Of a stretch of DNA of 64,000 bases, positions 27,044 through 27,862 are shown one piece after another. A program made the position numbers and the translations under genes. The notes under the pieces were generated by a model, which searched no databases, was not told the origin of the DNA, and saw nothing but the letters and a program-made list of their open reading frames with translations. Source of the stretch: Eledone cirrhosa (lineage: Eukaryota); assembly GCA_964016885.1 (NCBI GenBank), contig OZ024742.1:290408001-290472000 (forward strand). Direction: 5' to 3'. Position 1 is the stretch's first letter, and every line of letters starts with the position of its first letter.

Positions 27044-27045
<2 letters not shown>

Positions 27046-27700
27046 AGTTGAAAAAAAATGAAAACGAAATTTCATTTCTCACTCTTAGTATGGCACTTAC
27101 TTAAATGTAAGTATGTATGTATACGTACATACATATATGTATACAGACGTACAGTAGCATGCATATATATATACATATATATATATATACATATACATAT
27201 ATATACATATATGCACACAGGTACACATACATATATGCACGCATCAGTTTAGCCGACGTTTATTATAACGCAGCTTTGTTCGTTTGTTTGTCAACAAACA
27301 GAACAGCCTGGATTTATGCCATACGGTGTTAAGGCAACCACGTCACCTTTTTGTTCAACACTGACACAGGAACGATGTACTAGTTTCAAGCTTGTTAGCT
27401 ATCATCAGCACCGTTTACCCATCTGCCAGATAGTTGAACGTTCGAAAGTATATTTTCATAAGGAAAGTATATACTTTCGAACGTTCAACTATCTGGCAGA
27501 TGGGTAAACGGTGCTGATGATAGCTAACAAGCTTGAAACTAGTACATCGTTCCTGTGTCAGTGTTGAACAAAAAGGTGACGTGGTTGCCTTAACACCGTA
27601 TGGCATAAATTCAGGCTGTTCAGTTTGTTTACAAACGAACAAAGCGGCGTTATAATAAGCGTCCGCTAAACTGATGCGTGCATATATGTATGTGTACCTG

Positions 27701-27746
<46 letters not shown>

Positions 27747-27859
27747 TGCTACTGTACGTCTGTATACATATATGTATGTACGTATACATACATACTTACA
27801 TTTAAGTAAGTGCCATACTAAGAGTGAGAAATGAAATTTCGTTTTCATTTTTTTCAACT

Positions 27860-27862
<3 letters not shown>
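27044..27862. repeat. Head-to-head inverted pair of partial 491-bp family B units
   Basis: Arms ~27044-27452 and ~27452-27862; HHRs at 27372-27414 (-) and 27508-27550 (+); both ends read caacttat then (TA)n. Confidence 0.88.

Follow-up and report, generated by a model that had tools for sequence, protein, structure and literature searches.

The palindrome at positions 27043–27862 of the Eledone cirrhosa DNA analyzed here (contig OZ024742.1, positions 290,408,001 to 290,472,000; 64,000 nt, hereafter the window) is a real insertion and is built like known Penelope-type insertions. As in insertions by Penelope-like elements (PLEs), an inverted 5′-truncated copy is joined head-to-head, the target is a microsatellite, and the ends lie away from the cut site of the hammerhead ribozyme (HHR). 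The insertion is likely to be a copy of a non-autonomous non-LTR retrozyme that was inserted in trans by a TA-targeting PLE, the latter probably of the Hydra clade.

The 820 bases of the palindrome consist of two 411-nt partial units of a repeat family, here named family B, joined head-to-head inside a (TA)n tract. The family B unit is 491 nt long and carries a type I HHR. The left arm (27043–27453, minus strand, RNA 3′ end outward) covers unit positions 81–491, and the right arm (27452–27862, plus strand) covers unit positions 64–491. Two partial head-to-head family B units had been recognized in the preliminary description and were recovered here, but the term "monomer-scale" used for them does not hold, since unit positions 1–63 are absent and the locus contains no full monomer. 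Each arm has a type I minimal hammerhead with a short palindromic helix III, located at 27372–27416 in the left arm (minus strand, cut after 27378, dimer type) and at 27506–27550 in the right arm (plus strand, cut after 27544). The inversion junction (27452–27469) includes a 2-nt overlap at 27452–27453. The 5′ ends of the arms are 17 nt apart on the unit, and the site is an intrinsic palindrome of the family B unit. The arms share 95.6% (left) and 93.9% (right) identity with the unit of the family B array described below, and the right arm contains a 4-nt deletion that removes the tip of a hairpin and a 12-nt microsatellite deletion. These deletions cancel the 17-nt longer reach of the right arm, and the equal arm length is possibly a coincidence. 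Taken alone, the locus is a dead partial retrozyme copy.

The (TA)n flanks on the left (26912–27042) and on the right (27863–27970) both contain C interruptions on the plus strand. Their polarity is equal on the two sides and not mirrored, as expected from one polar microsatellite, and equal flank polarity was found at four of the five loci checked in the window. A target-site duplication of up to ~10–12 nt of pure TA is possible and would be unreadable in (TA)n. To the left, a LINE copy (23382–26911) ends abruptly at the TA flank (~26911) and lacks ~340 nt of 3′ UTR and a GAT tail that are present in the copy at 34.9–38.9 kb; the missing LINE 3′ end beside the flank suggests a deletion at the target. 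The right neighbor (27971–28354) is part of a repeat of ~610 bp that abuts the (TA)n and is also found at 463–1073.

Judged on its sequence, family B carries the testable marks of a non-LTR retrozyme, as these are given in the available text of PMC7229834. It is a tandem repeat with a period of 491 bp and a GC content of ~0.36 (a value below 50% is expected), and a type I HHR is present in each unit, with nine in the array and two in the palindrome. No open reading frame of at least 150 amino acids was found inside either family B locus. The circularized monomer is predicted to fold into a strongly self-paired structure (−167.5 kcal/mol, z −12.5 against 40 shuffles). The family B array (43366–48199) consists of 6.5 units on the minus strand joined head-to-head with 3.4 units on the plus strand and includes nine HHRs. 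Its junction is located at 46540–46545, with a 6-nt overlap, and its right end is 63 nt short, so that the two ends differ by an unequal tail of 63 nt; no such inequality is seen at the 27 kb locus. The 11 whole and partial units of the array carry only five substitutions in ~4.8 kb, and unit variants are not mirrored between its two arms. The internal TA tract is 4 nt shorter in the outermost units alone (43366–43852 and 47776–48199; 2 of 11), possibly because the two stem from a shared template unit, or because assembly works better for units anchored in a flank. An active retrozyme locus is defined by two consecutive HHR units (bioRxiv 10.64898/2026.07.22.740005, available text). The family B array contains at least two such tandem units, while at 27043–27862 there is one HHR on each strand and no two tandem units with complete HHRs. 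Neither family B locus was matched by tblastn with nine queries, and comparison of family B with the window's pLTRs revealed no similarity in sequence. By these searches, family B is neither an autonomous PLE nor the solo pLTR of a local one.

A second array, family A (11342–16028), has a unit of ~568 nt, a head-to-head junction at 13555–13557 and eight type I HHRs, whose stem II is long and branched (~50 nt) and whose cleavage triplet is GUU. A 34-nt deletion is present in one family A unit. No significant mutual similarity was detected between families A and B, the pLTRs and the small palindromes of the window; the best match between families A and B is an 11-mer (E 0.33).

The HHRs were found by custom patterns. 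In a search of the whole window, a pattern whose stem II limit is too short for family A detected 17 distinct cut sites, of which 11 belong to family B. In 30 shuffles the same pattern gave a mean of 0.07 sites and a maximum of 1. Rfam at gathering score identified no HHR in the window, and a tRNA-like match was the sole result. The distances from cut to end in family B are 335, 318–319, 331 and 268 nt. Three of the four family B ends fall at unit position 491, 318–335 nt past the cut, in agreement with the single stopping point ~330 nt downstream in the preliminary description; these three ends stem from just two loci. The fourth is located at position 428, 63 nt short. For this fourth end and for the two family A ends, distances of ~270, ~80 and ~195 nt had been reported, and we measured 268, 80 and 198 nt.

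The claim that the termini do not coincide with the HHR cut was also borne out. Among the eight ends with a known cut site (four from family B, two from family A and two from the neighboring PLE), none lies at the cut and all are located 51–335 nt downstream of it. In addition, both arms of the palindrome continue beyond the cut site for another 76 and 93 nt, and together these positions support the earlier proposal that priming is internal and does not occur at the 3′ end of an HHR-cut RNA. Since the arms run through the cut site, their sequence indicates an RNA template that was uncut or re-ligated and not a cut linear monomer. The ribozyme cut would have no role in setting the ends of the insertion. 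That PLEs can initiate internally, at a distance from the HHR cut, was established before (PMC11167929) and is not new here.

With regard to the choice of the priming site, a preferred structural initiation site, aided by short stretches of TA pairing, would fit the ends best and, on the predicted folds, is reasonably probable. The long family B end (position 491) lies in an open linker ~11 nt 3′ of a hairpin, within the most open 5% of the predicted circle, and the family A ends fall within the most open 4% and 9% of their fold by predicted accessibility. The short family B end is not unusually open (48th percentile). Altogether, six of nine scorable ends are found in the most open 11%, a count that leaves out three ends at the edge of the folded sequence and in which openness is confounded with AU content.

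The preliminary description attributed internal priming to TA microhomology on an RNA that is circular or multimeric. The family A ends, with TA overlaps of 5 and 5 nt (chance 0.044 each), favor a helping role for TA; the short end of another Hydra copy has an overlap of ~6 nt (chance 0.033) and the shared family B end one of 3 nt (chance 0.275). As the determinant of the site, TA selection is unlikely, and family B argues against it: the unit's own 27-nt TA run is used by none of the four ends, and among its 23 TA runs of at least 3 nt a single one was taken by three ends. The fourth family B end has an overlap of 0 nt and an extra C, and the ends of the autonomous PLE overlap by 2 and ~1 nt. 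Initiation by an anole PLE was likewise non-homologous in vitro, as described in the accessible part of PMC11167929. Overlaps at three other short ends are ~6, 3 and 1 nt. TA microhomology is a weak determinant of the priming site.

An intact Hydra-clade PLE is located at 1323–5904 on the plus strand. Its layout is (TA)n, an inverted partial pLTR (1323–1577), a pLTR, the ORF, a pLTR and (TA)n, with a long non-coding stretch between the ORF and the 3′ pLTR. HHRs are found at 1374, 1958 and 5766, and the ends lie 51 and 138 nt past the cut. The ORF (2145–4358) encodes 737 amino acids of the RT/GIY-YIG type and contains the motifs RWR, DKT, YRDD, CxCx5C (CNCRDRSKC), CxxC (CDLC) and CxH (CRH), together with a GIY-YIG-like motif at the C terminus. 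The element thus shows the motifs, HHRs and (TA)n target expected of the Hydra clade according to PMC8557442, with RWR in the place of the RWK-like motif. Pfam and PDB sequence searches with the ORF gave no relevant match, while its Atlas neighbors (at 0.96–0.98) include some with GIY-YIG or RVT_1, and a homology search returned at least three Argonauta hians proteins among the best 120 of 153, in keeping with a cephalopod host. The three pLTR copies differ by only one to two substitutions, which indicates that the element is young. Two more Hydra PLE copies, both 5′-truncated, are located at 18532–21118 and 21442–22183, with endonuclease fragments at 18817–19320 and 21442–22183, and share ~41% identity with the intact ORF. 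The copy at 18532–21118 has an inverted repeat of 241 bp, TA flanks and a 159-nt tail.

In their target, their orientation and the pattern of their ends, families A and B resemble an autonomous PLE that targets TA, and mobilization of family B in trans by a PLE is, in our estimate, highly probable. The PLE at 1323–5904 is a candidate for the type of mobilizer involved, with no similarity between its pLTRs and family B. Three further structures were noted in the window. The sequence at 32117–33074 contains an inverted repeat (254 bp, 96%) and an internal direct repeat in a PLE-like layout, and no HHR was found there by the custom patterns. Two small palindromes in (TA)n (17209–17403 and 48414–48592) have one-sided extensions of ~68 and ~80 nt; the former includes a degenerate HHR, and an 11-mer located in a small hairpin is common to the tails of the two (E 0.077).

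The available text of PMC8557442 lists inverted 5′-truncated copies and unequal tail ends as PLE signatures and (TA)n as the target of the Hydra clade. The insertion at 27043–27862 shares with the EN+ PLEs of this clade the inverted 5′-truncated 5′ copy, the HHR in the repeat and the (TA)n target, in which a target duplication is unreadable; unequal tail ends are shared by the family B array (PMC8557442, in the part available). Family B differs from these elements in having no ORF and no similarity to the pLTRs of the window, and tails in the window are 63–159 nt compared with 30–40 bp in the accessible text of that study. For the Poseidon PLE of the anole, the two internal positions at which reverse transcription is initiated correspond to genomic tail ends; in vitro, HHR cleavage is dispensable, and cutting and extension take place on both strands of the target. 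A dimer has been predicted for this element (PMC11167929, available sections). Ends away from the HHR cut, preferred internal sites and an AT-rich target are common to Anolis Poseidon and the present locus. The Poseidon work, in the sections available, deals with the autonomous element's own RNA and does not address inverted products, whereas family B is non-autonomous. Poseidon initiation is also non-homologous and uses an AC-rich stem-loop (same source and sections), in contrast to the mostly open U/A linkers with TA overlaps of 0–6 nt seen here.

With metazoan non-LTR retrozymes, family B shares a non-coding tandem unit, one type I HHR per unit, a low GC content, a strongly self-paired predicted circle and co-occurrence with PLEs, according to the available text of PMC7229834 and bioRxiv 10.64898/2026.07.22.740005. 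A U–U mismatch at the base of stem II is found in family B as in an axolotl retrozyme family described in the literature available to us. The unit of 491 nt exceeds the 150–450 bp first described for metazoan retrozymes and is within the later range of 51–972 bp, as far as these ranges are given in the accessible text. Unlike the metazoan retrozymes in these accounts, the locus at 27043–27862 contains no complete unit, and its arrangement is head-to-head, whereas the words "inverted" and "head-to-head" are absent from the text of PMC7229834. Dual minimal HHRs on opposite strands, 100–700 bp apart, have been described from Schistosoma (PMC4209133, available part), and palindromes at the junctions of Adineta PLEs were interpreted as self-priming (PMC3846280, available part). 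The palindrome analyzed here resembles both cases in its opposite-strand HHRs, which are 166 bp apart, and in its palindromic head-to-head junction. In the portions available, those cases were explained as truncated PLEs or by self-priming; here a tandem array is present as well, and the arms look like two RNA variants.

The two arms differ from each other by 10 substitutions and several indels. The inner 142 nt are identical, and eight of nine difference events outside microsatellites fall within ~100 nt (p 0.004). The two arms also agree in ~7 differences that set them apart from every unit of the array, and three of the seven are located in the outer stretch, where the arms are without substitution (Fisher p 0.051). 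The differences between the arms follow the predicted RNA fold, G–U pairs included. The 10 substitutions break 0–1 predicted pairs, against a null mean of 4.7–5.0 (1 to 17 of 5000 draws as low). When the changes were polarized, the combined energy change was −0.2 kcal/mol, where the null distribution has a mean of 11.7 (fraction 0.0095; 22/800 for the right arm and 80/800, not significant alone, for the left), with four of nine polarized changes being of types that can never break a pair. The unpolarized test is the stronger of the two, and we gave more weight to the polarized one. Changes of the type C>T/G>A account for two of nine arm-private changes and for five of five in the array (Fisher p 0.021). 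The fold, cluster and spectrum tests are all post hoc and concern one locus. Two-sided covariation was found in none of 79 pairs of the alignment fold; a compensatory U–G/G–C pair between the arms was rejected, as it represents a bulge shift and not true covariation.

The fold-conserving differences between the arms favor two RNA templates, primed from both ends of the target, over self-priming. Two different RNA units as the source of the arms are our preferred reading, with a chance that is even at best. The alternative, which we consider rather doubtful, is a single priming event in which the cDNA folded back and primed itself, after which gene conversion or decay made the arms differ; the two ends of 27043–27862 would then represent one event. 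Intrinsic hairpins of the unit mark both family B junctions, whose offsets are 17 and 18 nt and whose overlaps are 2 and 6 nt, a near-mirror geometry with a probability of 0.006 if the offsets were independent. Such near-symmetric junctions suggest fold-back, as its classic signature, and self-priming is also how the junction palindromes of PLEs were read in the available part of PMC3846280. The clustering of the differences beside 142 identical nucleotides resembles a conversion tract, the differences shared by both arms and their position in the outer stretch agree with fold-back, and if a paralog converted one arm after fold-back, a largely similar pattern of arms would be expected. However, fold-back by itself predicts identical arms, which are not observed, and the flanks are not mirrored. 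In the array, the presumed copy would be the arm of greater length (6.5 units, against 3.4 in the other), the junction offsets in family A and the Hydra PLE are 190 and 176 nt, with unequal ends, and decay alone fits neither the conservation of the fold nor the mutation spectrum. Intermolecular annealing of hairpins would, moreover, yield an equal junction geometry.

An origin at the DNA level, either as a MITE-like fold-back element with TA target duplication or as an inverted satellite duplication, would account for the long terminal inverted repeats and the TA on both sides, and we regard it as very improbable. A MITE or Tc1-mariner element would be expected to have several copies in the genome with the same termini and interior, and the search covered 64 kb, with one copy. 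The junction of the palindrome (unit 64/81) is found once in the window and differs from that of the array (236/254), all ends abut (TA)n in one RNA polarity, the arm differences track an RNA fold that includes G–U pairs, and an autonomous PLE with a matching layout is present. Palindromes amid long (TA)n tracts are difficult assembly targets, and a fold-back artefact of library construction or assembly was therefore considered; its probability is very slight, lower even than that of an origin at the DNA level. Assembly problems are mentioned in the accessible part of PMC8557442. Against an artefact, 10 substitutions and indels separate the arms, while the array has five substitutions in its ~4.8 kb, the flanks are unique and unmirrored, and the arms share differences that are absent from every array unit. 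The preliminary description had argued that a second family B locus speaks against a single assembly artefact, an argument that holds and is strengthened by the differing arms, unmirrored flanks and distinct junction.

The reading with two templates may be formulated, tentatively, as twin target-primed reverse transcription, in which a dimeric reverse transcriptase primes both nicked strands at once on two RNAs and the cDNAs are joined through a hairpin. As in L1 twin priming, cDNA synthesis would start from both strands of the target, and microhomology would connect the two cDNAs. The L1 process inverts a portion of a single RNA, whose 3′ end is not duplicated, whereas the 3′ region is copied twice here. 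In the proposed sequence of events, the PLE endonuclease would nick both strands of (TA)n; the target is seen in the window, and nicking of both strands is known from another PLE in vitro. From each 3′ end, reverse transcription would then be started on an uncut or circularized RNA, at a preferred internal site that is a U/A-rich linker, predicted to be open, just 3′ of a hairpin, and pairing of 0–6 nt of TA may help when it is available. The two cDNAs would extend inward and, where the unit has a self-complementary hairpin, presumably be joined through a few bases. Arms joined where the cDNAs are complementary would in a self-paired RNA be joined at a hairpin. Fill-in by repair would give heads joined and two tails outward.

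How tandem and inverted PLE insertions are formed is named as an open question in the available text of PMC8557442. The bioRxiv study 10.64898/2026.07.22.740005, in its accessible part, relates retrozymes to pLTRs by phylogeny. Mobilization of animal retrozymes by PLEs has so far been based on co-occurrence and pLTR phylogeny and not on the anatomy of insertions, as far as the sources available to us go. Under twin priming, the two arms represent two structure-conserving retrozyme RNA variants, both copied over 411 nt. If correct, this would be direct genomic evidence that Hydra-clade PLEs mobilize animal retrozymes, it would mean that retrozyme templates are drawn from a pool of heterogeneous RNAs whose structure is under selection, and twin priming would replace the self-priming account of PLE palindromes. 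What is new here is that arm differences which keep the fold suggest two templates; in the open-access literature we found no account of PLE palindromes primed on two templates or of retrozymes inserted head-to-head. Arm-to-arm comparison is a cheap genome-wide discriminator between two-template priming and fold-back, and the window, with two retrozyme families and an intact Hydra PLE, offers an enzyme-and-template pair for in vitro tests. RNA transcribed across the palindrome would fold back into a hairpin of ~400 bp and might serve as a source for the silencing of family B by small RNAs.

Several other features of the window were also observed. A LINE at 7281–10616 (minus strand), with about six related copies, encodes an AP endonuclease, a reverse transcriptase and, after the latter, a PHD finger. 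The 3′ ends of this LINE also abut (TA)n, sometimes as tail-to-tail pairs (38472–39168). Three copies of a repeat of ~350 bp with a tRNA-like segment (Rfam 31 bits) are located at 53845–54716 and 59917–60276; this repeat shares a part with the LINE 3′ UTR and is probably a SINE. An open frame of 520 codons at 55090–56652 gave no match in Pfam. Its end resembles the start of a macro domain, and the frame may be a large host exon.
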